DNA of 64,000 bases from a virus (IMGVR_UViG_3300045988_096785:41968-105967), one strand, 5' to 3'; positions 8,653 to 63,664 are shown, counted from the first letter of the stretch. Notes: a model not told the origin generated them from the sequence alone. Translations and numbers: made by a program.

Positions 8653-8692
8653 TTTGTTACGTGCTTCATGCACGTATGTTTAACAATTAAAT
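8653..8692 (+). promoter_or_regulatory. Bacteroidetes-type promoter candidate (-33 TTTG, -7 TAtgTTTA) overlapping a perfect palindrome TACGTGC-N4-GCACGTA (8658-8676)
   Basis: TTTG at 8653-8656 and TATGTTTA at 8675-8682, about 19 nt apart. The palindrome could be an operator. ATG at 8703. Confidence 0.4.
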
Positions 8693-8702
8693 ACTATAAA
8701 TT

Positions 8703-9710
8703 ATGGGTGGTGATAAAATCGTCCTTTTAGATGGAGCCGGGGCTAACGGTGGTGGTGCAGCCGCTAACGGTCTTCTTTCAATGATTCCCGGCATGTTTGC
8801 TAATTTAATAGGTGGTAATAAAATGGATCCGAATCTGGTGGCGGCTTTGATGAATGGTCGTAACAACCAGGACGGTTTCGGTGGGGCTAACGGTTGGTGG
8901 CTCTGGATAATTGTTTTGTTCTGGCTGTGGGGTGGACGCGGCTTCGGTAACGGTTTTGGAAATGGTGGTGATTGTTGCGCCAATGGTTTACCCGCTCAGT
9001 TGAATAACGATTACGGTCGTGAGCTTCTGATGCAGGCAATTCAAGGTAATCGTAGCGCTATAGATCAGATCGCTTCTGCTTTGAACTGTTCTACTACTCA
9101 ACTTCAGAACGCTATCTGCAACGTACAGGGTGCTATTGATAAAGTAGCTGGTCAGGTAGGTATGACTTCTCAGGCTGTTATCAACGCAGTTCAACAACAA
9201 GGTTGTGAAATCGGAAATCAAATCAGCTCTTGCTGCTGCAATCTGAGTTCGTTGATCAATCAAAGCACTTGCCAGACTCAGGGAATGATTACTCAGCAAG
9301 GTTTTGATAACCAGCTTCGCACGTTGGAACAAACCAATATCTTGCAGAACGGTCTCAACCAAGGTCTGGCTAACAATCGTGAGCAAGCTACAAGCCAATT
9401 TAATATCTTGTCTGCGAAACTTGACGCTCAAACCGTTATGATCAACGACAAATTCTGTCAGTTGGAAATGAGGGAGATGCAGAACACTATTGCTCAACTT
9501 CGTGAAGAAAAAGCGGCTTTGACAGCTTCGGCATTATCTCAGCAACAAACCCAGAATATCGTTGGTCAATTACGCCCGACGGCCGTCCCAGCCTACCCCT
9601 CTTGTTCTCCTTACCAGGCTTATTCTTGGGGACAGGTATTCGGAGGAGGTTACTGCAATAACGGATGTGGATGTAACAACGGATGTTGCAATAACAACGC
9701 TGCTGTCTGA
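8703..9710 (+). CDS. Gly/Trp/Cys-rich protein with a central coiled-coil (335 aa), hypothetical
   Basis: N-terminal Gly-rich region. Trp-rich hydrophobic segment WWLWIIVLFWLWGG. Gln-rich coiled-coil. C-terminal CCNNGCGCNNGCC. Confidence 0.6.
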   Translation: MGGDKIVLLDGAGANGGGAAANGLLSMIPGMFANLIGGNKMDPNLVAALMNGRNNQDGFGGANGWWLWIIVLFWLWGGRGFGNGFGNGGDCCANGLPAQLNNDYGRELLMQAIQGNRSAIDQIASALNCSTTQLQNAICNVQGAIDKVAGQVGMTSQAVINAVQQQGCEIGNQISSCCCNLSSLINQSTCQTQGMITQQGFDNQLRTLEQTNILQNGLNQGLANNREQATSQFNILSAKLDAQTVMINDKFCQLEMREMQNTIAQLREEKAALTASALSQQQTQNIVGQLRPTAVPAYPSCSPYQAYSWGQVFGGGYCNNGCGCNNGCCNNNAAV

Positions 9711-9733
9711 TTTTATTAAGAGAGGAGGCTAAT

Positions 9734-10147
9734 ATGGCTTGTGTTTCTAAAATAGGATCGTTGTATGAGATGGTTACGAAGAATGTTATTGTCAGTACGA
9801 CAAATACAATCTTCGGTATTAACCCACGGGCTTGGATCGCCCTTCCGTGTGAGGGTCTTATCCTTCTTAAGATAAGGCAAGTAGTCCCCACAGCCGGAAG
9901 TGCTCTACCGGTACAGATTGCGGTCCCGGCAAACAGCACAGTTTCAACAGTAGGAGCCGACACCTGTTGCTCGGTTACGGGAGTGAATGTCGTGAACCCT
10001 ATTAACGTAGCTGTAACGGGTGCTGCTATGGTAAATGGCACAGAACGCCTTCTGTACTTCAATAAAGTTCGTGGCGTGTTAAGATTAATGGATTGCTGTG
10101 TTCCAGTAGCGGCAGCCCAGGCGTCTGAAGTTAAAGCAGGTAAATGA
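9734..10147 (+). CDS. Hypothetical beta-rich protein (137 aa)
   Basis: ORF directly downstream of and co-oriented with 8703..9710. Confidence 0.5.
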   Translation: MACVSKIGSLYEMVTKNVIVSTTNTIFGINPRAWIALPCEGLILLKIRQVVPTAGSALPVQIAVPANSTVSTVGADTCCSVTGVNVVNPINVAVTGAAMVNGTERLLYFNKVRGVLRLMDCCVPVAAAQASEVKAGK

Positions 10148-10197
10148 TTTCAGTAGGGTGATGGAGATCATCACCCTATTTTCACCTAAATAATATT

Positions 10198-10692
10198 TTG
10201 ATCATGTTTTCAGATTTGAAGAAAGGGTTTCAGGTACATACCCTTGATACTAATACAGTACCTAAATACGAATTGGGAAAGGTAGTAGCCGTATCCGAAC
10301 CCAGGTATCTTCCTCCTCAGCCGGGTCAGTATCAGGCGATGCAGACCCGCGTGGTGGATCTGACGGTAGAGCTCACTGGCGAAACCAAAACCTATACGGT
10401 TCCGGAATCCCAGAATGTGGCTAAGGCTATGGGTATAACATTATCTACCAGCATAGATCCGATTATGAACGAACTGAATGCTATAAAAAGCACCAGTCAA
10501 GACATAATAGACAGCGTAGATACCCATCGTGCCAAGATAGAGGCTTGTGAATCTATATTAGAAGACATCAATCCGGCATTCAAACAAACGAGAGAGCAGG
10601 ATCGTAAAATAGCTGGTATAGAAAATAAGGTGAATGACCTTACTGATTCATTCGAAGATTTAAAGAAGTTAATTGTAGAACGTTTGAAATAA
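10198..10692 (+). CDS. Hypothetical coiled-coil protein (164 aa)
   Basis: ORF. Helical heptad-like C-terminal half. Confidence 0.5.
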   Translation: MIMFSDLKKGFQVHTLDTNTVPKYELGKVVAVSEPRYLPPQPGQYQAMQTRVVDLTVELTGETKTYTVPESQNVAKAMGITLSTSIDPIMNELNAIKSTSQDIIDSVDTHRAKIEACESILEDINPAFKQTREQDRKIAGIENKVNDLTDSFEDLKKLIVERLK

Positions 10693-10699
10693 GTATAAT

Positions 10700-13843: not shown

Positions 13844-14200
13844 ATGGGGTTTAAAATCAAAAAGTCAATCATTTATAATATGATGAACGGCAGTCGGGTA
13901 GAGTACGAATTTGACAATACCAAGGATTTTGATTATATTACATTTAAGGGTGATGGCAAAGAGTCTTTTTCATTTAACGTAATCCTTGTTAAACAATTAA
14001 TTGCAACATTTGAAATCATGTTGCAGGATATATATTCTGATAATTATAAGCTTAAGGTTTATGCTGGTAATTGCATAGTTCAATTGAACGCAAATCCAAA
14101 GGACTCAAGTGAATCCTTTTTTGACGTATATGATAAAGATGAAACGAAACTGATATATGGAATAGAGATCGGTATTCTGAAAGGAATGTTTGGCATATGA
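13844..14200 (+). CDS. Hypothetical protein (118 aa)
   Basis: ORF. Confidence 0.45.
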   Translation: MGFKIKKSIIYNMMNGSRVEYEFDNTKDFDYITFKGDGKESFSFNVILVKQLIATFEIMLQDIYSDNYKLKVYAGNCIVQLNANPKDSSESFFDVYDKDETKLIYGIEIGILKGMFGI

Positions 14201-15189: not shown

Positions 15190-18100
15190 ATGACATCAAC
15201 GTGTATTATTAAAAGAGATAATAAAAATAAAGTTGTTTCTGTCTCTACCAGATCAGGGGACAGGTCTATGTTGTTTGATAAAATAGCATCTATTCCTCTT
15301 ATGGAGAATAGGGAACGGGCTACTACTGTTTTTAAAACCGTATTTTCTAATAAGTTCTTAAAGGCTTTTGGTGACTGGAGAAGGAATGTGCCTATCAACA
15401 AACAGGCTTATAATAAGGTAAAATCCAATATCGACCTTATTCCGGAAGCCTATAGAGAAAGGGTGCTGGATAAGGCTTCTAAGATGAGCAACCCTATTCT
15501 TGTGTCGAAATCAGATGCACCTTATGGGATTCAAGAATCGGGCTTTGGATTCTACAGCCAAGATCTGGGTGATAATATTATGTTGGTGGATGCTATGGTC
15601 CCGTCAAGTATTTCCGTACCGGAAGGACCGGGAATAGACGCCGGGCAGTATCTACAAGATGCTATATCTTCGGACTTCACTCCCGTATCTATGGTACGGG
15701 ATAAGGGTGTTAATTATATGGTTATAAAAGACGGTCTTAAGATATTTAGCCCAGAGGAGTTACCAGAAGCAGATTCTAATCCTGTGGGTGTAACGTATCA
15801 GACCGGAGAGCCTCGTTTGTTTTTTATGAACGATCGTAGTCAATTATTTGAAGATTACGGAGAAGCTCTTCGCTCTGGCGGGAATGATATCAGAATAGGG
15901 TTCTTATCCGGCATCGTTCAAGAATCTACCGTGGATGGAGTGGCAGACATTACTTACAAGGCTGGAAAGTATGTCCTTAACAACCCCAAATCTTTTATAC
16001 CTGTTATGACCGCCTCTACTTCCACTTCTTTATCAACAAAAGGTGGGATAATAAACTACCTTATAAAGAAAGGTCTTTTGTCCGGATCCAAGATATTCGA
16101 TCCGGAAACAAGAAGCTATTATCTTACAGGAGAAGGACATGCAGGACAAATTAGGCTTTTCAATTCAGCATTATCCTACACTGAGCTCCGTAATCATTTT
16201 GGTTCTGATGTTTCCATGAATGATCAAGGCATGATAACCATAAATTCATTGGATAATAGTAAGGTGACTATGAGACTCGCCACCGGAGGAACGGAAAGGG
16301 TTAGTAAGGAGCAGATAAAGAGCGATCTTAAGTCTGGAAGATACAATGAATTGGACGCCAAGTACGATCATTTTGATGCGCTTGTAGTTTCATTCATATT
16401 AGAAGACAATGATCTTTATGCTGATACTAAAGCTAAGATCGTATCGGATTATAGCCAAGAGGAACGTAATCAACGAAATTCTATTGTTGAGATACTGAAA
16501 ACGCTGGGCGTTAGTGTCGTTGGCATGACCGATTATATAGAGAAGTACCAAACTAAATACGGACACGAACCTTCTGCTAAGGCATTGGCGGATATTGCCA
16601 ATAACGTAATAGCAGTCGGTGAAGATGCTACTTTGTCTGACTTAGTAGAAGAAACAGCACACTTTCTCGTAGAGGCGTACAGAGATCAGAATGCTGTTGA
16701 ATCTGTTTTGCAAGATGTAGAAGGCACTGAAGAATGGAATCAGTATGCAGGTCAGTATTATAATACATACGGTAAGGTATATGAAGGCTCTGAACTTGAT
16801 AATGCTGTTAGGAGAGAAATTCTTGGAAAGATCCTCGCCAGGGAGATGCAGACCGGCACAGCACAGGCGCCGGTAGAGCCCACCTCCTTCCTGGGGCGCG
16901 TCCGGCAGCTTCTCTCTGGAATTGTAAACTGGCTTAAATCAGCTTTATCAACCCAAAGACAGGATTTGAATAACGTTATTAAAAATATTCGTGATCTTGC
17001 TATTACCGACATAGATAAAGGATTTGATACTTCTCTTTTGAAGGATAATGACTTTACATTATACTCCCTTTCTTCTATGAACAAGAACAAGTTTCTTGAG
17101 TCTAAAATCAGGGCATTGAGAAAAACGTTAAGAGACTTACGTCAGATAAGCTCTGATAGGGCTGTAACTACGTCTATGACCCTTGCTCAGCTTAAGACCA
17201 TAGAAGATAAGATAAATAAGGTAGAGACCGAAATAGACAAGAATGAGATGGCGGCTGCCATGAACAGCATGATCTCTACAGCCGAAGCTCAGGTCAGATA
17301 CTTAAGCAATGTGGTGAACACCATCCTTCATGGTGATACCAAAGACGGCAAGCTTCACTTCAATACCAATGATCGAAAGAACGTAGATATTATCAACAAT
17401 CAGGTTCTTCCGATCATGAACGATCTTCGAGGATATATCCGTAACAGAAGTACCGAATTTGATGAACGTGAAAAGCAGGATTATACAAATAGGATCAATA
17501 CCGTCATTGCAGACATCAATGGTATTCAGTCTGATATTAAATCAGTACAAGACCTTGATGAAAGCACGTTGCTTGATAAGTTAATGAACGAACTTCATGT
17601 GCCGGCAGATAAGGTAAAGAGAGTAAAAGAATTTTTTGACAAGGTTCAACACGATGTTTCTTGGATAAGTAGGTGGTTTGGTATATTAGAGCATTCTTCC
17701 AGCCCGTTCAATAACGCTCTTGGAACTATGATTGCCAAAGACAATTACAATGCGATGGTGAATGCCCAGCCCGCCATATCCGACTTCCTGGCATATGCGA
17801 AAAAGCATGGTTTTAACAAATCTGAATTTGAAAAACTGCTTCAGAAAGTAGACGGAAAAATTTCTAATTATCTTCGTAGTGCTCTTGATATGGCTAAATA
17901 CGATCGTAATAAGAAGCTGGCGCAGATGCGAGCGTTTGCGACCGCCATGAACATAGAGATATCAGAAGAAGAAATCAATGATGTGGTTGACAATAACCGT
18001 AATTACGTATTTAAAAGAGAAGTAGTTGACAAGGACGGAAATACGGTTACCGAGAACGCTAAATTTAAACCGTCGTCCGATAGGGTTAATACCGATATTT

Positions 18101-21100
18101 TTACCATCGAGCAGGAAAAGATTTATACAGAACAGATGGAGAAGTGGGATGCTGAAAATTCAGAACTGGAATTTAGTGAAAGTTATGCCACAAGAATGGA
18201 ATCCATATACAAAAAGGCCGAAGAAGAATTAGGGCATCCGGTTTCTCAAACAACCAAAGAATACCTTAATGCTCTTTCTCGGCAGAAGCGGATATTGAGG
18301 CAGCCTTTTATTGATAGCAATGGTAATTTTGATGAGGTTGCTTACTATAAGAGTAGTAACTACGAAGAAGAAGGACTGCTTCGTAAACAACGTAAGGAAG
18401 CAGCTTCAGAATACATATATGTAGGAACCAGGAGAGTGGAAAAAACCGGTGATCAACTCAAGATGGCTAAAGAAATACAAGCCATAAATGAAGTTTGGAG
18501 AAAAGAATCAAATAATGTCACTAATGCCGTATCAGAATCATTTCTGCAAAAATTGAGAACTATTCAGCGTGAATCTGGAGGGGAAGCTGCGCTGAAGACA
18601 CTTATGTTGGGAGGTCACCTGTCATTTAATGATCGGTTTTGGAATGACGTAGAATCGGAACAGTCGGCGCGCACCGAATCAAACAACAAGGCTTCGTATC
18701 TTAAAATGGCGCATGATATCATTAGCTCTACGACAAGTGATAGAGATGCGACTGACGTGGATTCGATTGTGAAAGATATAGAAAAAAATAAGGCCATTAT
18801 CAAGGAAATAATCGGAAACAACCGAGATGTGGCTGATATCGGAGAAATTAACGAAGCGACATTTACCTCATCTGAAAGAGATGCTTTTAGGGCCGCATCT
18901 GAAGCTATTGAAGCCGATTACGCTATTTTGATAGATTATGCTAAGATGGTGGGTCTTGAAGATATTGATAAGTACCTTACTAAAAGCAGTAAGGCTGAAA
19001 ACGAAGTAAATCAGTCTTATTTAAATGCTCTTGCTGACTCCAAGGAAGTGGAATGGAAGTTCGTACAACGTCATACTACGGCGAAGAAAGCAAAAAGGAT
19101 TCAGGCTTTAAGGGATAAGCTGTTTAAGGCTGCTGATAACCGATATCTGTTTACCGTATCTGAAACCAACTACCTGTCAGAAAAGCTTGGTATAAGCAAA
19201 GAATTAGACGGTAGAGATTTCAGGAATGCTGTTAATGCTAAGATGGCCAGCTTATTTTTAAATAATACAAGAGAAGAGGGCGTAGAAGAAGCTAATGCTA
19301 TTGTTAATGAATTTGCCAGAAGCCAGGTTTTTTCGTACTATAAACGCATGGCGCCTACCGGATATGCAGCTATGATCGACAAAATCGGTCGAGGTGAGAT
19401 AGATGTGGCGCAGATGGTTAAGGACGTACAAAACGGTACATCCACCCAAGATTATGGCATGGACATATCGTACCTGTCTTTCGACCCTGCAAGGGCATGG
19501 GTGGCTGAATCTGAAGCCGAAAATAACGGTCGTAATCCTGATTATGTAAAAGATCATGGGTATGGTCATCGCATGCCTAAGAAAAGCCTGTATCGTGATG
19601 AATCGTATTTCAATGACTTTGGTATCAAGTATGATGCTGACGGTAATGAAGTTGCTACTAAAAACGTAGAGCAGTGGAATATGATTCAAAAACTCAAGGA
19701 AATAAAAAGACAATCCCTTGATCTATACAAAGAGCAGAGCCCGAACCTGTATGCTATTCCACAGATATCAAAACAAGACATAGAACGTATGGAAGGATTG
19801 GGTATTAACTTCAAAAATACGGTTCGTAATTTTGTATCAGATCTGTGCCTGGACAGAGTAGACGATTCTCTATATGGTAAGACCAGGCAAGGAGAAGTGT
19901 ATGACCCGGAAGACAGACTTAGGTCTATACCTAAATACTACATATATGAATTGGAGAACCAAGATGATGTATCTCACGATTTTGGCTACTCTTATTCGAT
20001 GCTTATGATGCAGTCATCGTTATACAACGAAAAGCAGAAGTCTATAGAGCTCGCTCAAGGACTGGAGCAGATGTTACTGAATAAGCAATTTGAAGGCGGT
20101 AAGAAAGCTGAGGCAACCCAAGCATATCAGATGTTCAGGGACTTCTTCAACGATCATTATTATGGCATTAGGATGAACACCAAAAAACTTACGGTAAACA
20201 TCGGAGGATATACGGTAGACCTTACAAGAATTATGATGGCTGTTGAAAGGTTTATGTCGGTCATGAACTTGGCACTGTCTCCGTTTGTGGCAGCTACCGG
20301 CGCCTTAACAGGTCATATCAACCTCATCATGGAATCTGCCGTAGGACAGTATATAAGCAAAGACTCCCTTAAATACGCATCGGCTGAATTTTCACGCCTT
20401 GCGCCATCTTGTATAGCAGAAACCGGAGACATAGATAGGAAAAGCAAATTATATGTCATAGGTGAGAGAATGGGGATATTCAATATCCGAAATCGTATGT
20501 ATGGTGCCGGATACAATAGAGTGGCCAGGACCTTAATGCGTTCGCCTATGTATGCTTTTATGGAAATCCTGAACTACCCTCTTGATCCGCAGGTTATGAT
20601 TGCTACTATGGACAATGTTCGTTATTACAAAGGTCGGTTCTACACGTTCCAAGATTTCAAGATGGAAAAAGAACGTAATAAAGAACAGAGTACCATAAAA
20701 AGAGAATGGAATGCATTAAAAGATCGTACTTTATGGAGTATGGTAGATGTCGTGGATGGGAAGGTGGTTGTAAAGCCCGGATCAGGTGTTACTGTTGAGG
20801 AAGTTGAAACCCAGATGGCTATAACCAGAAATCAAGTTCGTAGCTTGTCGCAGATATGTAACGGATCTTTGAATGAAGAAAACCGAACTGCCGCATCGCG
20901 CAACTGGATAGCTAGGTTCATGACCGCCCACCGAGGATGGTTGGTGCTGGCGGCTCAACGTCTGTGGAAAAGACGTGGCTTCAATTTCCAGACAATGCAA
21001 GAAGAGGAAGGACTGTCAATTACGTTAAAGAATATGATAGCCAAAACATTTAGCTTAGCTTCCGAGTCTGGTATGAAAAACATCATAGATGCCTGGAACG

Positions 21101-21612
21101 AAAATAAAGACAATATGAATGAGGTAGAAAAAACCAATCTCAAACGTCTCAGTGTCTATGCCGGCACGTTCCTTATCATGCAGGCCGTATCTATGCTTCT
21201 TGCCGGATGGCGTGATGATGATGAAAACGAAGAAAGTTGGCTTACTCAATTTGGATCCTATGTCGGATTCAGAACCATAAACGAAATAGCTTCACAGATG
21301 CCGTTTATTATGGAGCTTAACGTGGTAGATATCATTAACGATCCGTTCGTCATGGGACGGAAGCTGAAGGATCTTACCGATCTTAGGAATTATTCACTTG
21401 ATAAAGTAACATCCGGTACATACAAGGGAGAGTCTAAGTTATTTAGGCAACTCGCCAAACAGACGTTTATCAAACAATGGTATAATATCAAGACGCCGGA
21501 AGACGTAGCGCGCGCCTATAATTGGTGGCAGCAGACGAACAACAAGTCAATGATGTTCTTCATCGGCGCCACTCCTGATTCGGAAGGAGACGATGATGTT
21601 AGCTACAAATAG
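15190..21612 (+). CDS. Giant hypothetical protein (2140 aa). Candidate virion/injection protein. Should be compared to crAss-like virion RNAP and tape-measure proteins
   Basis: 6.4 kb ORF, mostly predicted helical, with a hydrophobic segment near the C-terminus (VYAGTFLIMQAVSMLLAGW). No DxDGD motif was found (only DADGN). Confidence 0.7.
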   Translation: MTSTCIIKRDNKNKVVSVSTRSGDRSMLFDKIASIPLMENRERATTVFKTVFSNKFLKAFGDWRRNVPINKQAYNKVKSNIDLIPEAYRERVLDKASKMSNPILVSKSDAPYGIQESGFGFYSQDLGDNIMLVDAMVPSSISVPEGPGIDAGQYLQDAISSDFTPVSMVRDKGVNYMVIKDGLKIFSPEELPEADSNPVGVTYQTGEPRLFFMNDRSQLFEDYGEALRSGGNDIRIGFLSGIVQESTVDGVADITYKAGKYVLNNPKSFIPVMTASTSTSLSTKGGIINYLIKKGLLSGSKIFDPETRSYYLTGEGHAGQIRLFNSALSYTELRNHFGSDVSMNDQGMITINSLDNSKVTMRLATGGTERVSKEQIKSDLKSGRYNELDAKYDHFDALVVSFILEDNDLYADTKAKIVSDYSQEERNQRNSIVEILKTLGVSVVGMTDYIEKYQTKYGHEPSAKALADIANNVIAVGEDATLSDLVEETAHFLVEAYRDQNAVESVLQDVEGTEEWNQYAGQYYNTYGKVYEGSELDNAVRREILGKILAREMQTGTAQAPVEPTSFLGRVRQLLSGIVNWLKSALSTQRQDLNNVIKNIRDLAITDIDKGFDTSLLKDNDFTLYSLSSMNKNKFLESKIRALRKTLRDLRQISSDRAVTTSMTLAQLKTIEDKINKVETEIDKNEMAAAMNSMISTAEAQVRYLSNVVNTILHGDTKDGKLHFNTNDRKNVDIINNQVLPIMNDLRGYIRNRSTEFDEREKQDYTNRINTVIADINGIQSDIKSVQDLDESTLLDKLMNELHVPADKVKRVKEFFDKVQHDVSWISRWFGILEHSSSPFNNALGTMIAKDNYNAMVNAQPAISDFLAYAKKHGFNKSEFEKLLQKVDGKISNYLRSALDMAKYDRNKKLAQMRAFATAMNIEISEEEINDVVDNNRNYVFKREVVDKDGNTVTENAKFKPSSDRVNTDIFTIEQEKIYTEQMEKWDAENSELEFSESYATRMESIYKKAEEELGHPVSQTTKEYLNALSRQKRILRQPFIDSNGNFDEVAYYKSSNYEEEGLLRKQRKEAASEYIYVGTRRVEKTGDQLKMAKEIQAINEVWRKESNNVTNAVSESFLQKLRTIQRESGGEAALKTLMLGGHLSFNDRFWNDVESEQSARTESNNKASYLKMAHDIISSTTSDRDATDVDSIVKDIEKNKAIIKEIIGNNRDVADIGEINEATFTSSERDAFRAASEAIEADYAILIDYAKMVGLEDIDKYLTKSSKAENEVNQSYLNALADSKEVEWKFVQRHTTAKKAKRIQALRDKLFKAADNRYLFTVSETNYLSEKLGISKELDGRDFRNAVNAKMASLFLNNTREEGVEEANAIVNEFARSQVFSYYKRMAPTGYAAMIDKIGRGEIDVAQMVKDVQNGTSTQDYGMDISYLSFDPARAWVAESEAENNGRNPDYVKDHGYGHRMPKKSLYRDESYFNDFGIKYDADGNEVATKNVEQWNMIQKLKEIKRQSLDLYKEQSPNLYAIPQISKQDIERMEGLGINFKNTVRNFVSDLCLDRVDDSLYGKTRQGEVYDPEDRLRSIPKYYIYELENQDDVSHDFGYSYSMLMMQSSLYNEKQKSIELAQGLEQMLLNKQFEGGKKAEATQAYQMFRDFFNDHYYGIRMNTKKLTVNIGGYTVDLTRIMMAVERFMSVMNLALSPFVAATGALTGHINLIMESAVGQYISKDSLKYASAEFSRLAPSCIAETGDIDRKSKLYVIGERMGIFNIRNRMYGAGYNRVARTLMRSPMYAFMEILNYPLDPQVMIATMDNVRYYKGRFYTFQDFKMEKERNKEQSTIKREWNALKDRTLWSMVDVVDGKVVVKPGSGVTVEEVETQMAITRNQVRSLSQICNGSLNEENRTAASRNWIARFMTAHRGWLVLAAQRLWKRRGFNFQTMQEEEGLSITLKNMIAKTFSLASESGMKNIIDAWNENKDNMNEVEKTNLKRLSVYAGTFLIMQAVSMLLAGWRDDDENEESWLTQFGSYVGFRTINEIASQMPFIMELNVVDIINDPFVMGRKLKDLTDLRNYSLDKVTSGTYKGESKLFRQLAKQTFIKQWYNIKTPEDVARAYNWWQQTNNKSMMFFIGATPDSEGDDDVSYK

Positions 21613-29174: not shown

Positions 29175-30194
29175 TCATCGTTTTATCTTTTTAGACGGAT
29201 CCCAATCCGAAGAGAAAGGGCATTCGTTTTTGTTATGTAATCCAAAGTCACAATAATAACACAGTGCTGACGGGTAGGGTTGTTTGTTTTGCGGAACAGG
29301 CTGGCTTAGGGTGGCACGCCGCTTGCTATACCTGGCTCCTTCTGCTCCCTGGATGTACGCTTGAAATGATTTTACACTATTATCTTCAAAATCATACATT
29401 TTAGACAAAGTGTCATTTAGCATCTCTATAGATTTTGTTTTACGTTCCTCATCCACCTTAACCTTTTGGTACTGCCTGGTCCTGGTAAAGAAATAGATGT
29501 TCATATCTGGAAGAACTCCACCATATTTTCTATAGATGTAAAATGAATATATAGGATGCTGTAAATTCGTTTCCAACTTCTTAGAATCAAAAACCTTATT
29601 ACCTGATTTCCAATCTATGACATAATGGTGAACTACGTTCTTGCTTTTTATAGCCAGATGAAGGTCTACCGATCCTACTATGTACACATGAGTATGAATT
29701 ACTCCATTTATGTTAACAGGCTTAGGAAGACGGTACGGCAGCACAAAATCTTCTTCGACTCCAACTATAGCGCCGTGTCTGATAAGTTTCTCGCAGGGAT
29801 TAAGATCACTATCAGCTATCATAAACCTATTGCCGTCTTTTTTAAACAGATCCACAATCCAAGCAAGAAGCTCTCCAGATTGCTTCATGGCTATCATCAT
29901 ATTTTCCGGTGATTGCCAAGGTATGTCTTCTTGGTAAGCATAGTAACTTATAGCTTCCCCCAGGTCTTTGCCAGAAGGCTGTCTTCCGTTCTTGAAGAAG
30001 TATTCCAGTGTCTTATGAATAACTGTACCATAAGACGTAGCTTCTTGTTTTTCCGTAGACCTTTTGCCCTCCACGTAAGTTTTATACCATTTCATTGGAC
30101 AGGTAAGAAACGTGTCTATCTGGGAATAAGATATGGCAAGACGTTTCACACCATTAAACTCCTTATATAGCAAATGCGTTTCCGGGACCATCAT
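29175..30194 (-). CDS. PD-(D/E)XK nuclease, Cas4/RecB-like with an Fe-S Cys cluster (339 aa)
   Basis: N-terminal Cys (LTCPMKW) and C-terminal C-x2-C-x8-C (LCYYCDFGLHNKNEC). VDLH and VIDWKSG match nuclease motifs II/III. QHPIYSFY matches the QxxxY motif. Confidence 0.6.
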   Translation of the reverse strand: MMVPETHLLYKEFNGVKRLAISYSQIDTFLTCPMKWYKTYVEGKRSTEKQEATSYGTVIHKTLEYFFKNGRQPSGKDLGEAISYYAYQEDIPWQSPENMMIAMKQSGELLAWIVDLFKKDGNRFMIADSDLNPCEKLIRHGAIVGVEEDFVLPYRLPKPVNINGVIHTHVYIVGSVDLHLAIKSKNVVHHYVIDWKSGNKVFDSKKLETNLQHPIYSFYIYRKYGGVLPDMNIYFFTRTRQYQKVKVDEERKTKSIEMLNDTLSKMYDFEDNSVKSFQAYIQGAEGARYSKRRATLSQPVPQNKQPYPSALCYYCDFGLHNKNECPFSSDWDPSKKIKR

Positions 30195-30538
30195 AAGTCA
30201 TTGTCTTTAAATCCTTCCGGGTAATATACGACATACTTCTTACCGTCTTCTGGTGTCATGGCAAACTGCATGTAGTTATTACGATTACGATGCTTGCCAT
30301 CCAATCCTCGTTTCCAATACAGGATACCGTCTATATCCACATAAGACCGTCCGCGTTCGGCTCTAACCACGTCCGTGTGTAGCAGATACCCGTCGGAAGA
30401 CACAATCCACACTTTATCCCCTTTGTTTAAATAAGATATTCTTTTTCTTACTATAATCTTTTTCTTATTATCCAATACAAATTCCTCGTCAGTCATACTC
30501 TTCATCCTCCTCTTCTTCTGTTTCAAAATCAATTCCAT
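30191..30538 (-). CDS. Hypothetical protein (115 aa)
   Basis: ORF overlapping the nuclease start. Confidence 0.45.
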   Translation of the reverse strand: MELILKQKKRRMKSMTDEEFVLDNKKKIIVRKRISYLNKGDKVWIVSSDGYLLHTDVVRAERGRSYVDIDGILYWKRGLDGKHRNRNNYMQFAMTPEDGKKYVVYYPEGFKDNDL

Positions 30539-32764: not shown

Positions 32765-32797
32765 AACTTTTAAAATTTAATTGTTGATAAAAAAAAA

Positions 32798-47919: not shown

Positions 47920-48128
47920 AGTAAAATCGAAGCTCCTAAGAATCTCTTCTGGCTTTCCAAACTCTGACTCTATGAACTCTATCCATACCTTTTCTCCCTC
48001 TTTCTGGAACGCACATACCTTCTATTTCTCCACTTTTAATTTTTCTCGCCGTATTTAAATCAAACGGAACAACAATTGAATTTTTCATATCTTTTCGTTT
48101 TTAATTGTTATAAAATAGGATGGGTTAC

Positions 48129-49190: not shown

Positions 49191-49202
49191 ATAAGTATCT
49201 TT

Positions 49203-49517
49203 TTAATTGTTTAACTTACCTCTACTATATAATCCTCTTTGTTCATATTTTTCAATACATTCGGTTATCATATCGCAGAACACTTGCCCTTCTTTTTCGG
49301 AACCTCTGAAGTAACCAATCATCTTCAGGATATTCCCGTTAAACTCATGGACAAACTTATTGTAATAATGCTCTCCCATAACTTTCCCGTATTTTTCCAT
49401 GAACAAATTCTTGTCCAGTGATTCATCCTTAAAGCAGCGGTTGTAATCCCATCTTACGATACGAAACAATGTTTCAAAATTCAATCTTTCCATATCCTGT
49501 ATTTTATTTAAGTTCAA
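49203..49517 (-). CDS. Hypothetical protein (104 aa)
   Basis: ORF. Confidence 0.45.
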   Translation of the reverse strand: MNLNKIQDMERLNFETLFRIVRWDYNRCFKDESLDKNLFMEKYGKVMGEHYYNKFVHEFNGNILKMIGYFRGSEKEGQVFCDMITECIEKYEQRGLYSRGKLNN

Positions 49518-54301: not shown

Positions 54302-54490
54302 TTACTCTGGCTGTTTCACCCACTCCCTGTACCCTACATTAAAACCAATAGGATCATACCTTTTGATCATAGTACCATAATTCTCTCTACCACAATACCT
54401 GTTTTTCCCTCCAATGATCCATGCCTCATCGTCTCTATCTGGAGATATGGAGTTAAGATACTTTTCATAATCCTTTCTACTCTTTCCCAT
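54302..54490 (-). CDS. Small hypothetical protein (62 aa)
   Basis: ORF. Confidence 0.35.
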   Translation of the reverse strand: MGKSRKDYEKYLNSISPDRDDEAWIIGGKNRYCGRENYGTMIKRYDPIGFNVGYREWVKQPE

Positions 54491-54836: not shown

Positions 54837-55338
54837 ATTCCACTATATTTATGTTGTCAAATTTTTCTTTTATAACATCCAAGGCTCCACACTCGTTTGT
54901 TACCATAACATACTTTCCTGGCTTCATTCTCCACAGATTAAAATACCTTGTCACATTCATAGTGGCATTAAATAATGATATTTCGTATCTTGTGTTCCCA
55001 TTTTCATCATGTCCCGCTTTTTTAAAATAACATAGGGTCGGCTTGTATTTGAAATAATTAAAAAGCCTATACCATCCCTTTCCGTTACATGTTTCACAAT
55101 TCCATATTCCAGCAAGCTTCCTATATCCCCTTACCGGTATTCTCTCTATTTCTTTTGGTACGATCTTGACATACTTTCCTTCTCCGATTGGTATGGTCAT
55201 ATTACCTGCCTCTTTCGTGCAAAAGTATTCTATTTCAGATGCCATTCCTTTATACATATAGAACCGGTATAAGTTCCCGTCAGGGTCTACCCGATCCATG
55301 TAATATAAAACCACTTTGTCTACTTTTATCGTTTTCAT
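54823..55338 (-). CDS. Hypothetical protein (171 aa)
   Basis: ORF. Confidence 0.45.
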   Translation of the reverse strand: MKTIKVDKVVLYYMDRVDPDGNLYRFYMYKGMASEIEYFCTKEAGNMTIPIGEGKYVKIVPKEIERIPVRGYRKLAGIWNCETCNGKGWYRLFNYFKYKPTLCYFKKAGHDENGNTRYEISLFNATMNVTRYFNLWRMKPGKYVMVTNECGALDVIKEKFDNINIVEYGSE

Positions 55339-57416: not shown

Positions 57417-57701
57417 TTATACTCCGGTCTTTCCATTTCCTCTGTTTATTACTCTATAGTATTTATCCTTATCCCCTTCTTTTAACTTCTCCAGATAGAA
57501 AATTCCATCATGTAAATGAGACAAACAAAATCTGTATCCGTATTTCTGTACTCTTCTTACATGATCCCGCAGTCTTATCTCTTCACTTTTGTCTTGTACT
57601 TTGATCTTAATACTGTCTCCTTCTTTGATTGTGTATAAAATAGTTTGAATCTCTTCTTTTTTCATCTTATAAAATATTTTAACGGCAGCACCTATACTCA
57701 C
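57417..57701 (-). CDS. Hypothetical protein (94 aa)
   Basis: ORF. Confidence 0.4.
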   Translation of the reverse strand: MSIGAAVKIFYKMKKEEIQTILYTIKEGDSIKIKVQDKSEEIRLRDHVRRVQKYGYRFCLSHLHDGIFYLEKLKEGDKDKYYRVINRGNGKTGV

Positions 57702-57728
57702 GCACCACTACTGCCTTATGTTTAACAA

Positions 57729-58538
57729 TTAAATACTTAACTCTTCAATGGTCAAGCCTTTTTCTTTTGCCCACTTTAGCATTGCGCATAATTCTGTTTC
57801 TGACTTATATTTCGGATCACGCCACGCCCATCCGAATTTATCCAGGACATGATGATATAATTCGTCGGCCTTTGCCGTGTAAATGTCTTTGAATAAATGC
57901 TCCGAACCTTCCGGTATAAGCATCTCTGTTGTTGCAAAATCGGAATACGACAAACATCCGTAAGCATATTCTGTTATTTCACTCCATGCTTCTCCGGCTT
58001 TAAATCCAAATTCTTTTACAAAAGCCAAAGTTAGATACATATTTAATAATATTGTTACATCATATTCCGAATCCGACTTTCTTTCTATTATTTCTTTTTC
58101 AAATTCCTTTAAATCTTCAGGCCCTAAAAAGATGTATCCTGATACCGACCGGTAATTAGCCTCCGCATACTTCTTGCATTTATCATCATTGACAATCTTA
58201 CCAATGTTAGATAACATCTTTTGCCTCCATTCATCACAAAACTCTACCCTTACATCCATCCAATCAGTACCATAATTGTGATCTTTTGGATGTCCGACCG
58301 ATATTACCTTTATGTTATTCACACCATATTCATAAAGGCGTTCGCCCACCTTATTCGCCCATTCCTGTACAAAAGGAATAAACTTATTGCAATAAGAATC
58401 AAAATCAAAATCTAATTCCTCCTCATATTCTGGCATCTCTTCATAATCTTGTTCAAAGAAATATCGAGGATCTGCTATTGTTTCATAGAAACTTACGTTA
58501 ATGAAACAAAACTCGTTGGTTGTCGTTTTTAATATCAT
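57729..58538 (-). CDS. Hypothetical protein (269 aa)
   Basis: ORF. Confidence 0.5.
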   Translation of the reverse strand: MILKTTTNEFCFINVSFYETIADPRYFFEQDYEEMPEYEEELDFDFDSYCNKFIPFVQEWANKVGERLYEYGVNNIKVISVGHPKDHNYGTDWMDVRVEFCDEWRQKMLSNIGKIVNDDKCKKYAEANYRSVSGYIFLGPEDLKEFEKEIIERKSDSEYDVTILLNMYLTLAFVKEFGFKAGEAWSEITEYAYGCLSYSDFATTEMLIPEGSEHLFKDIYTAKADELYHHVLDKFGWAWRDPKYKSETELCAMLKWAKEKGLTIEELSI

Positions 58539-58908: not shown

Positions 58909-59142
58909 TTACAATACTTTTGTCCCACAATTGTTATATCGTCCGTACTCTTTTTTCGTATCATTCAAGATTTCAAACACCATCTTCTTATGATCTTTGT
59001 TTGGTAACTTGTCTTTAACAGCCGATATCACGCTCGCTATAGACGTAAAGCCTGAATCTGTTATTGAACACAACAACAAACCTCTGTCGTCGTCTGTGCT
59101 TATCGCTGACGCCTTTATAATATCATTCCTATATATTCTCAT
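58909..59142 (-). CDS. Hypothetical protein (77 aa)
   Basis: ORF. Confidence 0.35.
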   Translation of the reverse strand: MRIYRNDIIKASAISTDDDRGLLLCSITDSGFTSIASVISAVKDKLPNKDHKKMVFEILNDTKKEYGRYNNCGTKVL

Positions 59143-59320
59143 AATCTTTCGTTTTATTGTCTACAAACTTATCTATATCGTCTCTTATTCTTTTTAGCAC
59201 TCCGGCTATAATTTCCGGCATCTCTCCTTCGGTACGGTTCAGAGTTTCTATCACCCCATCAATCCTACCAATTTGACGCCATAAGAAATTGGCGTCTTTC
59301 GCATTAAATTCCCTCATCAT
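59129..59320 (-). CDS. Hypothetical protein (63 aa)
   Basis: ORF. Confidence 0.35.
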   Translation of the reverse strand: MMREFNAKDANFLWRQIGRIDGVIETLNRTEGEMPEIIAGVLKRIRDDIDKFVDNKTKDYENI

Positions 59321-59552
59321 GTCTTATTTTACAGTAAACAACTTGCTTTTTTAAGCACCAGTCTTGCGATTCTGAGAGTGAACACCGTTCGGAGTTGTTA
59401 AAAAATATACAATCTTTGCAGAACATAAGAGGATCTTCGTCGTCACCAACTACTTTGACATCATACTCTATACCATACAATTTTAATCTAAATACATCTC
59501 CTGTTTTTTTAGAAGACAAATCCATGTTCGGACCGAATGTTATTACTTCCAT
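59304..59552 (-). CDS. Small Cys-rich protein, paralog family member (82 aa)
   Basis: DLS..G..F..K..G...V.AKVV...C..CIFF.....C.LS.S...C pattern shared with 60739..61008 and 34237..34446. Confidence 0.5.
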   Translation of the reverse strand: MEVITFGPNMDLSSKKTGDVFRLKLYGIEYDVKVVGDDEDPLMFCKDCIFFNNSERCSLSESQDWCLKKQVVYCKIRHDEGI

Positions 59553-59572
59553 ATAATTATGTTTTATTGTTT

Positions 59573-59668
59573 GTGAGATGCCCAGAATCGAACCAGGACC
59601 GGCACATACATACCGGCACGCCGCGCCATCCCTCTATGATACACAAATAGACATGCCTATTCTCACGA
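59573..59668 (-). tRNA. Possible tRNA or tRNA-like element (T-arm GGTTCGATTCT plus acceptor-like CATCTCAC). Non-canonical by manual folding
   Basis: The plus strand shows CCCAGAATCGAACCAGG, the reverse complement of a T-arm. An intergenic GTGAGA...TCTCAC pairing spans about 94 nt. Confidence 0.3.
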
Positions 59669-59725
59669 ACCGACATGCCAAAACCCAAAACTTAATTTGA
59701 TGAATAAAATAGATTAACAAAAATA

Positions 59726-60040
59726 CTATTCTAATTCTTTTATAATATCTTTCACAATATTCAGCCTTACCTCCTTCGTTTCTGGACTAAGACAACCAAA
59801 CCACCCATAAAACGTTCTTGTTTCCTCTGGTTCTGTGGCCATACTTATCTTCTCTTCCAATTCCGGGAAATATATTCTCACCATTTCGTCTGAACGAAAC
59901 TCATAGATATTTTTATGTGTTTTGAAATACATAAACACTACATTTCTTAACGCAACACATATGTATTCCCCATCCTCTAACCTATCAATCATCTCATATA
60001 CCTTTTTCCATATGAATAATCGCTCTTCTTTTGTAAACAT
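59726..60040 (-). CDS. Hypothetical protein (104 aa)
   Basis: ORF. Confidence 0.45.
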   Translation of the reverse strand: MFTKEERLFIWKKVYEMIDRLEDGEYICVALRNVVFMYFKTHKNIYEFRSDEMVRIYFPELEEKISMATEPEETRTFYGWFGCLSPETKEVRLNIVKDIIKELE

Positions 60041-60054
60041 ATCCTTCTTTATTT

Positions 60055-60471
60055 TTATGGTATTATTTGACTGTATGCAGACTTTTCCATGTACACAATA
60101 TTATGCTCCTGTCCAAATATCTTCTTTGCCGCCTCTTTCTTTATCGCACAATATCTCCCTGTACGATACGGATTCTTTTGATCTGATCCATCCTCGACTT
60201 CGATAATAAAACAGCCTCCGTCATCTATTATCTTTTTGCAATTGTCACATACTCCGCCCGTGCATATATGATGCGGTGCCTGCCCTTTGATATTATTCCC
60301 TAATAAAGCAATGCCCATCTCTTCGCCACATATCATGCAGACTTCTATAGACGGATTCAATCCGTGTTCTGGATGTAATGTAACACCATCTTTCATTTTC
60401 TTTCCTCCTTTGTTTTTAATGTTGTGTGAGATCGCCGGAATCGAACCGACTTGCTGCACCATGAATCCCAT
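60055..60471 (-). CDS. Zinc-ribbon hypothetical protein (the real start is probably the internal Met MKDGVTL)
   Basis: CMICG...CDNC motifs. Confidence 0.4.
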   Translation of the reverse strand: MGFMVQQVGSIPAISHNIKNKGGKKMKDGVTLHPEHGLNPSIEVCMICGEEMGIALLGNNIKGQAPHHICTGGVCDNCKKIIDDGGCFIIEVEDGSDQKNPYRTGRYCAIKKEAAKKIFGQEHNIVYMEKSAYSQIIP

Positions 60472-60738: not shown

Positions 60739-61008
60739 CTACTCCCCCTCTATGGCAGCCTGTTCGTACCTACAAATCCAATCTCCATCTACACAACTAT
60801 CACTACGCGATAATAAACATTTATCCTTATAACAATCATAAAAAATACACCTATCACAACTGTAATCCTTAACGTCTACACAGCTAACTACCTTAGCATA
60901 TACTATACCATCACTGCCTTCTATTCCTTTCACCCCAAAAATAGAACCTTCTACTTCTTTACTCAAATCTAAATCGGGTGCAAAATCATATACGTTCATA
61001 CCATCCAT
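60739..61008 (-). CDS. Small Cys-rich protein, paralog family member (89 aa)
   Basis: SCVDV...CDRCIFYDCYKDKC pattern. TGTTTAACAATTAAAAT sits immediately upstream of the ATG. Confidence 0.5.
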   Translation of the reverse strand: MDGMNVYDFAPDLDLSKEVEGSIFGVKGIEGSDGIVYAKVVSCVDVKDYSCDRCIFYDCYKDKCLLSRSDSCVDGDWICRYEQAAIEGE

Positions 61009-61069
61009 ATTTTAATTGTTAAACATTCCGATTACCACTAATCTATAGAATATAGTTTTCAACTCTCAA

Positions 61070-61186
61070 CCTATTGAATTTTGTAGAATAAACTCACATT
61101 TTGCTGTTTTAAAGCACTGTAATCCTTAATTTTGTGGGAAAACCCTACATAATGTTGTTTTAAAACGCTTATCTATTGAATTTTGT
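61070..61186. repeat. Direct repeat CTATTGAATTTTGT x2 (61070-61083 and 61173-61186)
   Basis: Exact 14-mer duplicated 103 bp apart in a noncoding region. Confidence 0.6.
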
Positions 61187-61817: not shown

Positions 61818-61916
61818 CCACGTCCGCCGTTCACTCTCAGAATACCTACCCGTAAATAGAAAGAGTAGGATACGAAAATAGGGCTACTCCGATATTCGGA
61901 ACAACCCTATTCCTGT

Positions 61917-62123
61917 TTAAATACTGTTTATGTTTTCTTTCACGTATGTTCGTGATGTATGGACTTTGCGTTTGCATTTGTCCTTTCCCGTATCGGCATG
62001 ATACGCTTCTTTAAGATCACGATACAACATAAATTCCCGATACGCTCTTTTCCGCTTTTCTTTAGCTTCTTTCCTGGACAGACCGCGAACGTCTACCATG
62101 TGAGATTTAAATTTCCTTTCCAT
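61917..62123 (-). CDS. Small basic hypothetical protein (68 aa)
   Basis: ORF. Lys/Arg-rich. Confidence 0.35.
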   Translation of the reverse strand: MERKFKSHMVDVRGLSRKEAKEKRKRAYREFMLYRDLKEAYHADTGKDKCKRKVHTSRTYVKENINSI

Positions 62124-62145
62124 TTTCTTTATGCTTTAATTATGA

Positions 62146-62367
62146 TTAACCCCAGCGGTTAAGTGCTTCAATATAGAAACCTTCCGCCTCTTTGTACTCA
62201 CTTTCGCTCAATGTTTCCACCGTCTCGATATAGTTACGCAATGTTATTTTTACGCAACTGTTTTTAGATTTATTGAACGCTTCAGTTAAAGCGTTGATCA
62301 TTGCTTTCTTTCCCATGTTATTATATTGTTTATAATTTAGAGGTTGCTCCGGAATCGAACCGGACAC
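62146..62367 (-). CDS. Small hypothetical protein (73 aa)
   Basis: ORF. Confidence 0.35.
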   Translation of the reverse strand: MSGSIPEQPLNYKQYNNMGKKAMINALTEAFNKSKNSCVKITLRNYIETVETLSESEYKEAEGFYIEALNRWG

Positions 62368-62407
62368 GCATTCCTATCCTATAGAGATTTTATGCTACAA
62401 CCAACAG
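62341..62407 (-). tRNA. Possible tRNA or tRNA-like element (T-arm TCCGG-TTCGATT-CCGGA plus acceptor-like GCAACCT)
   Basis: The plus strand shows CTCCGGAATCGAACCGGA. A 6 of 7 acceptor pairing to TGGTTGT exists, but the element is only about 63 nt. Confidence 0.3.
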
Positions 62408-62899
62408 CCCGTAATTAGTACGTAGTTCTTGCGTACAGGCCCGTACTATGTTTTTATTATATTTTCCGTCTGCTACACTATTTCGCCACACATAACGGCA
62501 TAGTGTCCTTGCGTTTTGATACGGCACGTCCCTACATGGTAGGCTACATGTTTATACCCTGTAATTTAATCTACAGCCTTGTCCTATTTTACGTGTAGGC
62601 AAGTAAGACACGTTTCGGTCTGGAGATAAACCGCGTACAACGGTATGTTTTCCAAACTGTACTAACATACCTAACATAACTACATTTATCCAATGTAATA
62701 CATGCAGTAATACCAGCCCTTTAATTGCCAACGGCAAGGGCAAAGGTATATCTATCTCCAATATGTAAAATAACTCTCTGTTTTGTCAGCTTCAGTCTAA
62801 AGCATACGCGGGACGTGCACCCACTGACAACGGCGTACAAGCGCGTTTAACGGTACGCGTCAAACCTTTGGAGAGCTTAACGGCGCTCTCCGTGCCTTG
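62408..62899. other. 490-bp GC-richer noncoding region with recurring GTACG/CGTAC and AACGG motifs
   Basis: No convincing ORF (62552..62761 is likely spurious). AACGG occurs 6 or more times. Several CGTAC-containing short palindromes. Confidence 0.4.
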
Positions 62900-63445
62900 T
62901 TACTGCTGGTTGCTTTCATGTGCGAGGTATTCACTTACACACTTTGCCACAGTGCGAATAGAATAAGATTTGATCTTAACAGCCACATAAGTAGCTTTAT
63001 ACTCGTCGTTTTCTTTTATCAACCATTTAGTGCTTTTTTTGGTCTCCAATGATTCGGCAGTAGTAAAACCAAATGATTTATATTCGCTACCGTAAACCAC
63101 ATTCTCAGCGCACCAATCAGCCGTTTTAGCCTCAACGCCTTTCTCTTTGTCTGCATTGGTATCCTTATACACTTTAGAGTATAAAGCAAATTTAACAAAT
63201 GTATCGTCAACTTTCGGTAACATTTGGCTACACACAGCTACCAGGCGTTTTTTATCCTTGGCGAGGGCTGCAACCTTTACGGCGTATTCTGCCGGTATTT
63301 CCAAGGCCTTGCAAATAGACTTAAGATCAGCTCCATTAGCAAATAAAGCGTTGTATAACTTTACGGCACCTACCAAATTTGCAGCGTTTTCTTTGATAAC
63401 AGCATTCTGTAGTTTGTTTACATTTTTTTTCGTAATCATATCCAA
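62900..63445 (-). CDS. Hypothetical protein, first gene of the leftward module (the real ATG is probably at 63439; the track start is TTG)
   Basis: ORF preceded by TGTTTAACAATTAAAAT about 10 nt upstream. Confidence 0.5.
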   Translation of the reverse strand: MDMITKKNVNKLQNAVIKENAANLVGAVKLYNALFANGADLKSICKALEIPAEYAVKVAALAKDKKRLVAVCSQMLPKVDDTFVKFALYSKVYKDTNADKEKGVEAKTADWCAENVVYGSEYKSFGFTTAESLETKKSTKWLIKENDEYKATYVAVKIKSYSIRTVAKCVSEYLAHESNQQ

Positions 63446-63664
63446 TATATTTTAATTGTTAAACAAATGATATTCAATTTAATGACCCACAACGCAGGCA
63501 ATTACAGATACATATATAGTTCACCCAACGGGTACACTATATAGATTCACTATGTTAACTCGTAATCTCTCTCGATCACGACGCAAATATACGACATTTG
63601 TCAATACTACAAATATATATACTATCTTTTTTTTGTTAATTTGTATTAATTTCGATTCTATTAT

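Follow-up and report, generated by a model that had tools for sequence, protein, structure and literature searches.

Why would a phage place one and the same 15-nucleotide (nt) sequence, TGTTTAACAATTAAA, at a fixed distance before several of its start codons, and once more in reverse at the end of a gene? The question is raised by a 64,000-nt stretch of viral DNA (IMGVR_UViG_3300045988_096785:41968-105967; hereafter the window), in which a preliminary description made from the sequence alone had noticed the repeat. Over most of its length the window is ~95% identical, with mosaic insertions and deletions, to crAssE-Sib (OR575929.1; 151 kb, human gut), and by this sequence comparison it is an Epsilon crAss-like phage of the crAssE-Sib group (proposed Epsilonunovirus). 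Large structural genes occupy a plus-strand block at 1-21.7 kb, and replication genes together with many small genes a minus-strand block at 21.9-64 kb. Gene regulation in crAss-like phages, the most abundant human gut viruses, is almost unknown; the only detailed study of their transcription gave no motif for early transcripts, and promoters, intergenic motifs and regulatory sequences go unmentioned in the paper describing crAssE-Sib. How Bacteroidia choose start sites without a Shine-Dalgarno (SD) sequence is likewise an open question. Here we propose, at a probability of roughly 0.45, a joint reading in which the forward ("sense") copies of the 15-mer form an extended translation-initiation leader and the reversed copy belongs to a complementary antisense RNA.

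A conserved sequence, probably a leader element, 11 nt before start codons

Four exact copies of the 15-mer were found in the window, at 8677-8691 (+), 57719-57733 (+), 61011-61025 (−) and 63451-63465 (−), where none is expected and none occurred in 100 dinucleotide shuffles. With up to two mismatches allowed there were eight matches against 0.8 expected, and the sequence topped the repeat counts among the 12-14-mers of the window. Its 10-mer core, AACAATTAAA, occurs exactly seven times, and six of these seven copies stand in the arrangement AACAATTAAA-N11-ATG (N, any nucleotide), for which 0.02 are expected. The shuffle counts and the count of this arrangement rule out a chance repeat, in agreement with the preliminary description, several of whose coordinates were off by 1-5 nt (61006-61021, for example, is 61011-61025). 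In all six sense cores the last A lies at −12 relative to the start codon; the core (AACAAUUAAA) occupies −21 to −12, and the full 15-mer reaches to −26. The spacing between motif and ATG had been described as fixed, which it is, but at exactly 11 nt in the window and 11-13 nt in close relatives instead of about 10-25 nt.

Three of the sense copies are exact. On the plus strand, 8677..8691 lies in the leader of a 335-amino-acid (aa) gene (8703..9710, phrog_16490), whose ATG follows 11 nt downstream, while on the minus strand 61011..61025 and 63451..63465 lie 11 nt before ATG 60999 of an 86-aa protein and ATG 63439 of a 179-aa protein, respectively. The copy at 61011 is preceded by ~900 nt of non-coding DNA with a 51-nt tandem repeat, and 60999, the second ATG, is taken as the true start because relatives lack the first. 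The other three, all on the minus strand, are variants: AGTTAAACAATTAAA at 49202..49216, 11 nt before ATG 49190 of a 353-aa protein (phrog_7247); TTTATAACAATTAAA at 48100..48114, 11 nt before ATG 48088 of an open reading frame (ORF) of 50 aa here and 246 aa in crAssE-Sib; and TTATCAACAATTAAA at 32771..32785, its core exact (32776-32785), 11 nt before ATG 32764 of a 494-aa SPFH/Band_7 protein. The first two of these variants had been noticed before and are real, as are the other copies then listed; the third, carrying the seventh core copy, had been missed. At 49202..49216 the TAA within the motif is the stop codon of the upstream gene 49203..49517. These three core copies (49202, 48100 and 32776) lie in tight operon junctions and are therefore certainly transcribed. 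Near-matches at 5209-5223, within a TnpB-like ORF, and at 13987, within ORF 13844..14200, are probably due to chance. The enrichment upstream of genes also held when the complete crAssE-Sib genome was scanned, which returned solely the orthologous copies and a few core variants, every one before a gene. No common function was found among the motif-bearing genes, which comprise an SPFH/Band_7 protein and two unknown PHROGs without a shared theme, and a literature search for the motif sequence returned no relevant paper.

Constraint on the motif was assessed in 80 relatives, a set unbiased toward the motif because it was fetched through a neighboring protein. The motif is conserved in these relatives, the 11-nt spacer varies in sequence but not in length, and the upstream flanks diverge. 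At the 61011-type site, ...AATCGGAATGT[T/A]TAACAATTAAAA is kept downstream of a variable repeat array, with a spacer of constant length and at least five different sequences. The 63451-type site has TTGTTTAACAA unchanged across 29 haplotypes though both flanks diverge, and its spacer measures 11-13 nt. In a more distant relative, TTTTAACAATTAAA stands before another gene. The inverted repeat TTTAA-CAA-TTAAA contained in the exact copies is not conserved across copies and relatives, and the constrained unit is thus the sequence, chiefly AACAATTAAA. Two origins for the repeat through rearrangement were rejected. The copies do not mark recombination junctions or the boundaries of a mobile cassette, since indel junctions between the window and crAssE-Sib lie 65-100 nt from them and the flanks at 61011 show small indels without clean joins; nor do the inverted copies bound an invertible segment, the arrangement being identical in 80 of 80 relatives.

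The fixed spacing has a counterpart in the general initiation signal of this phage. When 102 predicted gene starts of the window were aligned, A made up 67%, 73%, 68% and 62% of the bases at −14 to −11. TAAA ends at −12 in 24 of these genes and TTAAA in 14, while TAA ends at −13 in 30 of the 102, where it is often the stop codon of the preceding gene, which accounts for many gene junctions of 11-12 nt. An A-rich determinant at −14 to −11, said to be characteristic of Bacteroidetes, is known from Flavobacterium johnsoniae, in which A at −12 and −13 correlates with ribosome density (PMC6847099). Given the 11-nt spacer, the AAA at the 3' end of the motif occupies −14 to −12, and by supplying this A-rich signal it explains both the exact distance and the fixed orientation. 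The 3' half of the motif is accordingly the ordinary SD-less initiation signal of the host phylum and is not motif-specific, and the earlier suggestion of a translation-initiation enhancer in hosts without SD usage is borne out to this extent. The 5' extension is of another kind: 811 ORF starts from random Bacteroidota genomic loci, used as a control, showed the A-rich block and no consensus at −26 to −15, arguing against a general host consensus, and AATTAAA at −12±1 was present at 7.8% of window starts versus 1.1% of the 811. By this comparison the 5' extension is specific, not generic. The sense copies are thus very probably an extended, conserved leader element built upon the Bacteroidia SD-less initiation signal, and the element at −26 to −12 offers a concrete sequence to mutate.

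Junctions placed exactly 11-12 nt after a TAA are unusually common in the window, many of them on the minus strand (50400/50412, 52450/52462, 53238/53250 and 53717/53729), and at such junctions the upstream stop also serves the next gene as the TAAA of its initiation signal.

Searched with the exact 15-mer, IMG/VR yielded 72 unrelated stretches besides close relatives, and in about half of the unrelated ones the 15-mer lies 9-12 nt before an ATG. One of the unrelated stretches, an 11.1-kb contig (IMGVR_UViG_3300045988_002535, hereafter L011), and ~11 similar gut viral contigs carry three copies of [T/A]GTT[T/A]AACAATTAAA, where 0.04 are expected, each 11-12 nt before an ATG, the genes concerned being the first to either side of a divergent control region. 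A family of ~68-kb contigs (L070) has two copies, again 11-12 nt before ATGs. No proteins common to the window and either family were found in the DNA compared, and a shared phage protein behind the motif was rejected on this ground. Because unrelated families share the motif without shared proteins, its reader would be at the level of the host, such as the ribosome or protein S1, and not a protein specific to the phage. The exact 15-mer also has many matches in bacterial genomes, in line with chance for an AT-rich 15-mer in an estimated ~60 Gb of Bacteroidota DNA, and since their number fits chance, only their positional bias toward ATG is informative. The phage matches describe a 10-15-nt leader element common to unrelated Bacteroidales phages and absent from average host genes.

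Other structured or repeated sequences adjoin the exact sense copies. Just upstream of the 61011 motif, the 51-nt tandem repeat (61071-61186, 2.3 copies) varies widely in copy number and unit sequence among relatives (L248-L327), with the palindrome-like CAGCGTTTTTAAAACAG in its units. A small hairpin at ~63483-63502 (−), about 20 nt upstream of the 63451 motif, has a conserved loop, GCGTTGT, and a stem that differs between haplotypes yet stays complementary (CCTCTTT/AAAGAGG versus GCCT/GGGC types). Before the 335-aa gene, a GAnnTTTG box followed by a hairpin is found both in the window (8649-8676, +) and in a sister species (L330, 9930-9975), again with different stems that keep their complementarity (TACGTGC/GCACGTA versus CCCAC/GTGGG).

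The reversed copy and its hairpin

The copy at 57719, which had been listed as 57718-57737, is reversed relative to the local minus-strand genes and does not precede a start codon. On the transcribed minus strand, positions 57733-57719 read UUUAAUUGUUAAACA, the exact complement of the sense motif (hereafter the anti-motif), and overlap the TAA stop (57731-57729) of a 269-aa gene, 57729..58538. The reversed copy and the sense copy at 8677 have 21 nt in common (TATGTTTAACAATTAAATACT). Three nt after the anti-motif comes a hairpin, GGCAG-UAGUGGUGCGUGAGUAUAGGUG-CUGCC (57715-57684, −), and the intergenic module ends with an AU-rich spacer, GUUAAAAUAUUUUAUAAG, leading into ATG 57665 of the next gene (57663..57683, −). 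The minus-strand RNA has a predicted fold of −22.4 kcal/mol (z = −2.15) in which the anti-motif is unpaired, while the plus strand reaches just −6.5 kcal/mol (z = +0.94), so that the hairpin is stable on the minus-strand RNA only. The module matched no Rfam family. A small plus-strand gene following the reversed copy was considered and rejected: the 34-aa ORF has a spacing of 14 nt and is not conserved, and its ATG is lost in one divergent relative (L332).

In close relatives neither the module nor its flanks vary, so that its invariance there is uninformative. More telling are three divergent relatives (L332, L334 and L357), where the module persists beside homologues of only 55-57% protein identity. 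In these the hairpin core GUGGU(G/A)CGUGAG(U/C)AUAG (GTGGTNCGTGAGNATAG) is conserved, and the outer stems differ from those of the window yet remain complementary through three compensatory pairs, with invariant G·U pairs. A 50%-identical homologue (L333) is accompanied by neither the module nor clear N11 motifs, and homologues at 63-79% identity are mosaics with an identical 3' end. No further module variants came from IMG/VR, and the matches from JGI metagenomes were unrelated.

Across what amounts to about one lineage split, sense and reversed copies change together. For L332, reverse-complementing the anti-motif yields TATCTAACAATTAAA, to be set beside TTTCTAACAATTAAA (N11, ATG 4344) and TGTCTAACAACTAAA (N12) as sense copies of the same locus; for L334 it yields TGTCTAACAATTAAA, beside the sense copies AGTCTAACAATTAAA and AGTCTAACAATCAAA. 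Every copy in these two genomes, two reversed and four sense, has C at position 4. In L357 the anti-motif again gives TATCTAACAATTAAA, the first sense copy, TATTTAACAATTAAA, has U at position 4 opposite G, a wobble, with a matched A-U pair at position 2, and the second begins TGTCT, with C at position 4. Throughout the window lineage position 4 is T or A, while the lineage of L332, L334 and L357 has C-G or U·G there, and a sense C opposite an anti-motif A was not found in any lineage compared. In one contig of the window lineage the anti-motif has changed from C to U opposite sense G2, again a wobble (a U·G case was also noted for L313). Such a passage from U-A through U·G to C-G is the pattern that RNA pairing predicts.

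Perfect complementarity to the anti-motif extends over 21 nt in the leader of gene 8703, 16 nt in that of 60999, 15 nt in that of 63439 and 10-13 nt in the variants. Predicted duplex energies are −27.7, −16.4 and −15.4 kcal/mol for the first three, against a mean of −7.5 (standard deviation 3.3) over the 102 leaders. Matched pairs of sense and reversed copies from the same lineage are mostly, not always, stronger than mismatched pairs.

These observations suggest a tentative model. The 15-mer would be present in the mRNA leaders of about seven genes, its last three A's serving as the A-rich −14 to −11 determinant, and its AU-rich 5' extension, lying just upstream of the mRNA channel of the ribosome, may act as a standby or enhancer site that favors initiation. 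The reversed copy would be transcribed within the minus-strand early operon and presented single-stranded, directly 5' of the stable conserved hairpin. The intergenic RNA, whether processed or not, could then base-pair in vivo with the leaders of the motif-bearing mRNAs, and such pairing, by covering the A-rich element, would control translation and may switch these genes off. The best reading of the reversed copy, judging from the modeled structure and the changes in step with the sense copies, is that it forms the complementary seed of a structured RNA able to regulate the leaders in trans, although this is somewhat less likely than not. Somewhat more speculatively still, a structured RNA after gene 57729..58538 with a seed against the whole set, which runs from two early genes through several middle ones to the late-block gene 8703, might act as a post-transcriptional timing switch.

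Alternative explanations

Several observations weigh against this joint reading. Unrelated phage families show the sense motif and no obvious antisense copy, and there is no evident terminator U-tract at the hairpin (57684..57715), nor an evident discrete small RNA. Before the orthologue of gene 60999, two rare haplotypes lack the 5' half or the whole of the motif, and in about half of the close relatives T4 of the 61011 site has become A, which creates a mismatch to the anti-motif; in the sister species L330, whose P1 is 81% identical, an AU-rich leader without the 15-mer precedes the orthologue of gene 8703. In 6 of 60 trials with AU-rich shuffled seeds, at least three leaders scored −14 kcal/mol or better, and for this reason only the pairing with 8703 is clearly exceptional. 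The co-variation amounts to about one independent lineage split plus wobble intermediates, and it could have arisen by concerted evolution of the repeats or through a shared protein that binds double-stranded DNA.

It is worth asking whether a leader alone would do. The motif might simply be an optimal AU-rich, SD-less leader, fixed by repeated selection or recombination and lacking a trans partner, and the reversed copy a by-product of the structured element beside it or what is left of the 8677 leader, with which it shares its 21 nt, after an inverted duplication. We consider this proposal rather unlikely. The A-rich signal does account for spacing and orientation, the motif does recur ahead of ATGs in unrelated phages and bacteria, close relatives conserve the whole region around 57719 evenly, and the count of strong predicted duplexes is not significantly above that of AU-rich shuffles. 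A leader without a partner does not explain why homologues of 55-57% identity still have the reversed copy next to them, with its positions 4 and 2 following the sense states, or why an unpaired site stands next to a hairpin that folds on the transcribed strand alone. Orientation-independent recognition of DNA would explain both the reversed copy and the co-variation, and the four exact copies do contain a 5+5 bp inverted repeat. A phage or host regulator might thus bind the near-palindrome TTTAA-CAA-TTAAA in either orientation as a double-stranded DNA operator, with sites overlapping the leaders blocking transcription. Repressor and anti-repressors are annotated in this phage group, and a small helix-turn-helix (HTH) repressor at 8238..8378, the "prophage repressor" of the crAssE-Sib paper, would be one candidate. 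The dyad symmetry is not conserved, however (variants TATAA, TTAAA as a direct repeat, TTTTAA and TCTAA), and of eight copies counted, seven face the same way at exactly 11 nt from an ATG, neither of which an operator requires. The exact copies also lack an adjacent canonical promoter, the unrelated motif-bearing phages share no protein in the DNA compared, and the flanking hairpin is strand-asymmetric, which points to RNA. An operator of this kind is therefore unlikely.

The preliminary description had offered, as one reading of the repeat, a promoter −7 region. The Bacteroidetes −7 element is TAHHTTTG, with a near-invariant G at −5, virtually no G at −10 or −9 and a start site 4-5 nt downstream. 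The best fit to it within the motif, TATGTTTA, resembles TAnnTTTG loosely, having A at −5, G at −9 and the initial TA in just two of the four exact copies, and so breaks its defining rules. Canonical TAnnTTTG boxes, mostly TATCTTTG, do exist in or near intergenic regions of the window, 17-30 nt before ATGs: at 5671, 11910 and 15159 on the plus strand (genes 5697, 11935 and 15190) and at 41600, 36496 and 26464 on the minus strand (genes 41574, 36458 and 26426). They are likely, on this sequence match, to be promoters for host RNA polymerase, for instance for the 2140-aa gene 15190..21612, and the genes that bear them do not overlap with those that bear the motif. The unrelated phages and bacteria with the 15-mer have canonical boxes 1-10 nt upstream of the motif, at variable distance (in one L011 copy the motif begins 5 nt downstream of a perfect TAACTTTG box), while the distance from motif to ATG stays at 10-12 nt. 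Because these boxes lie upstream of it, the motif is probably part of the transcript. The promoter reading could be kept if transcripts started a few bases before the ATG, from a −7-type box for host RNA polymerase or from a site for the phage virion RNA polymerase. Each of the three exact sense copies does come after a long non-coding stretch and before the first gene beyond it, and the early promoters of the crAss-like virion RNA polymerase are undescribed in the one detailed study. The short inverted repeat with its 3-nt loop also recalls the hairpin promoters of phage N4. Its hairpin potential is not conserved, the inverted repeat being too weak for a stable hairpin or cruciform of that kind; three core copies (49202, 48100 and 32776) sit inside operons; and a sigma-70-like reading, with TTAACA as the −35 element, would put the −10 element over the ATG. 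A promoter element of either type is thus improbable. Hardly credible at all is a mini-ORF, ATG/TTG-TTT-AAC-AAT-TAA (MFNN*), from which terminating ribosomes would re-initiate 11 nt on, mimicking the stop-N11-ATG junctions. In its favor, the base before the motif is A in three exact copies (ATG) and T in the fourth (TTG), the frame survives in the variant ATG-TAT-AAC-AAT-TAA, 11-12-nt gaps are common behind a TAA, and the motif forms the actual 3' end of a preceding gene both at 49202 and in the L011 family (...LNN* and ...MFNN*). Yet in-frame starts are confined to the four exact copies, with none at core copies 48100 and 32776 or at one L011 copy (three core copies in all have none), and chance alone would put a start-compatible base before TG in ~43% of four-copy sets (calculated). 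The putative start codons also lack the A-rich −14 to −11 context, the one at 8677 falls within a hairpin, and the reversed copy is left unexplained.

Related systems and other features of the window

The known signal closest to the sense copies is the SD-less initiation region of Bacteroidia, which is A-rich at −14 to −11 and has A-3 and A-6 (Baez et al. 2019, PMC6847099). The motif resembles it in placing AAA at −14 to −12, with the same A enrichment phage-wide, and in being AU-rich, G-poor and located in the leader; it differs in that the known signal is a loose base preference, while the phage has a specific, repeated and conserved sequence of 10-15 nt that reaches to −26. An AU-rich, unstructured leader upstream of the ribosome footprint is likewise found in the SD-independent enhancers. 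These include the epsilon sequence of T7 gene 10, UUAACUUUA, and the ACAAUUAC repeats of tobacco mosaic virus (TMV) omega, which are thought to act through protein S1; the enhancers come from work in E. coli and plants and not from Bacteroidia. The short sequence ACAAUUA is common to the motif and the omega repeat. The sigma-ABfr −7 element TAHHTTTG is similar in being AT-rich and close upstream of genes, and TATGTTTA matches six of its eight positions in two copies; it is set apart by its defining G at −5 and by the G at −9 of the motif, and by the genuine boxes elsewhere in the window.

For the reversed copy, parallels come from translational regulation. RegA of phages T4 and RB69 binds AU- and UAA-rich operators over the initiation regions of many early mRNAs, and the motif shares with these sites its shortness, its AU-rich and UAA-containing composition and its location in the initiation regions of a few phage genes, which would imply a translational regulon. 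No RegA homologue turned up, though no search was aimed at one. RegA sites are degenerate and overlap the AUG, in contrast to the exact phage motif, which ends 11 nt before it and whose proposed partner is an RNA rather than a protein. Trans-acting antisense RNAs, among them small RNAs (sRNAs) derived from 3' untranslated regions (3'UTRs) in enterobacteria and GibS of Bacteroides, occlude ribosome loading sites, and lambda OOP and P22 sar are antisense RNAs of phages. Like these sRNAs, the module has a predicted single-stranded seed beside a stable hairpin at a coding 3' end and 15-21 nt of complementarity to several initiation regions, and seed and targets appear to co-vary, over about one lineage split. 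Unlike them, its targets would be SD-less leaders, its seed faces the A-rich or standby region instead of an SD sequence or AUG, and its hairpin has no evident U-tract. Classical phage antisense RNAs are encoded in cis, opposite their target, whereas the putative 57719 RNA would act in trans on several genes. Should the complementary RNA prove functional, it would be a compact, portable translational switch for Bacteroides engineering and a new class of phage riboregulator. To our knowledge no riboregulator has been described in Crassvirales before, nor any "anti-TIR" RNA against a Bacteroidia-type initiation signal (TIR, translation initiation region). If it is not functional, the finding is a strong but ordinary initiation leader.

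Several further features of the window were noted. Directly 5' of genes 59552 and 62316, at ~59572-59600 and ~62340-62365 (−), stand T-arm-like sequences, GGTTCGATTC(C/T)GG, followed by AAACAAT(A)... leaders; as tRNAs, these tRNA-like ends were recognized neither by ARAGORN nor by Rfam (E<=1). The anti-repressor gene of crAssE-Sib (~1.1 kb; Sib 95436-96542) is absent from the corresponding place at 8490-8580; the small HTH "repressor" ORF (8238..8378) is kept. Other cassettes exchanged between the two genomes lie at 25685-26532, 42540-44344, 48017-48035 and 51236-55141. An insertion relative to crAssE-Sib holds the 390-aa TnpB-like ORF (4411-5601, −), whose DNA is 76% identical to a TnpB gene elsewhere in crAssE-Sib (Sib 58968-60130). 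Finally, positions 30658-30902 (−) give a full-length Rfam match, at 95 bits against a gathering score of 83, to HEARO (HNH endonuclease-associated RNA), an IscB-type guide RNA family; the match sits in a 530-nt gap upstream of ORFs 30191..30538 and 29175..30194.

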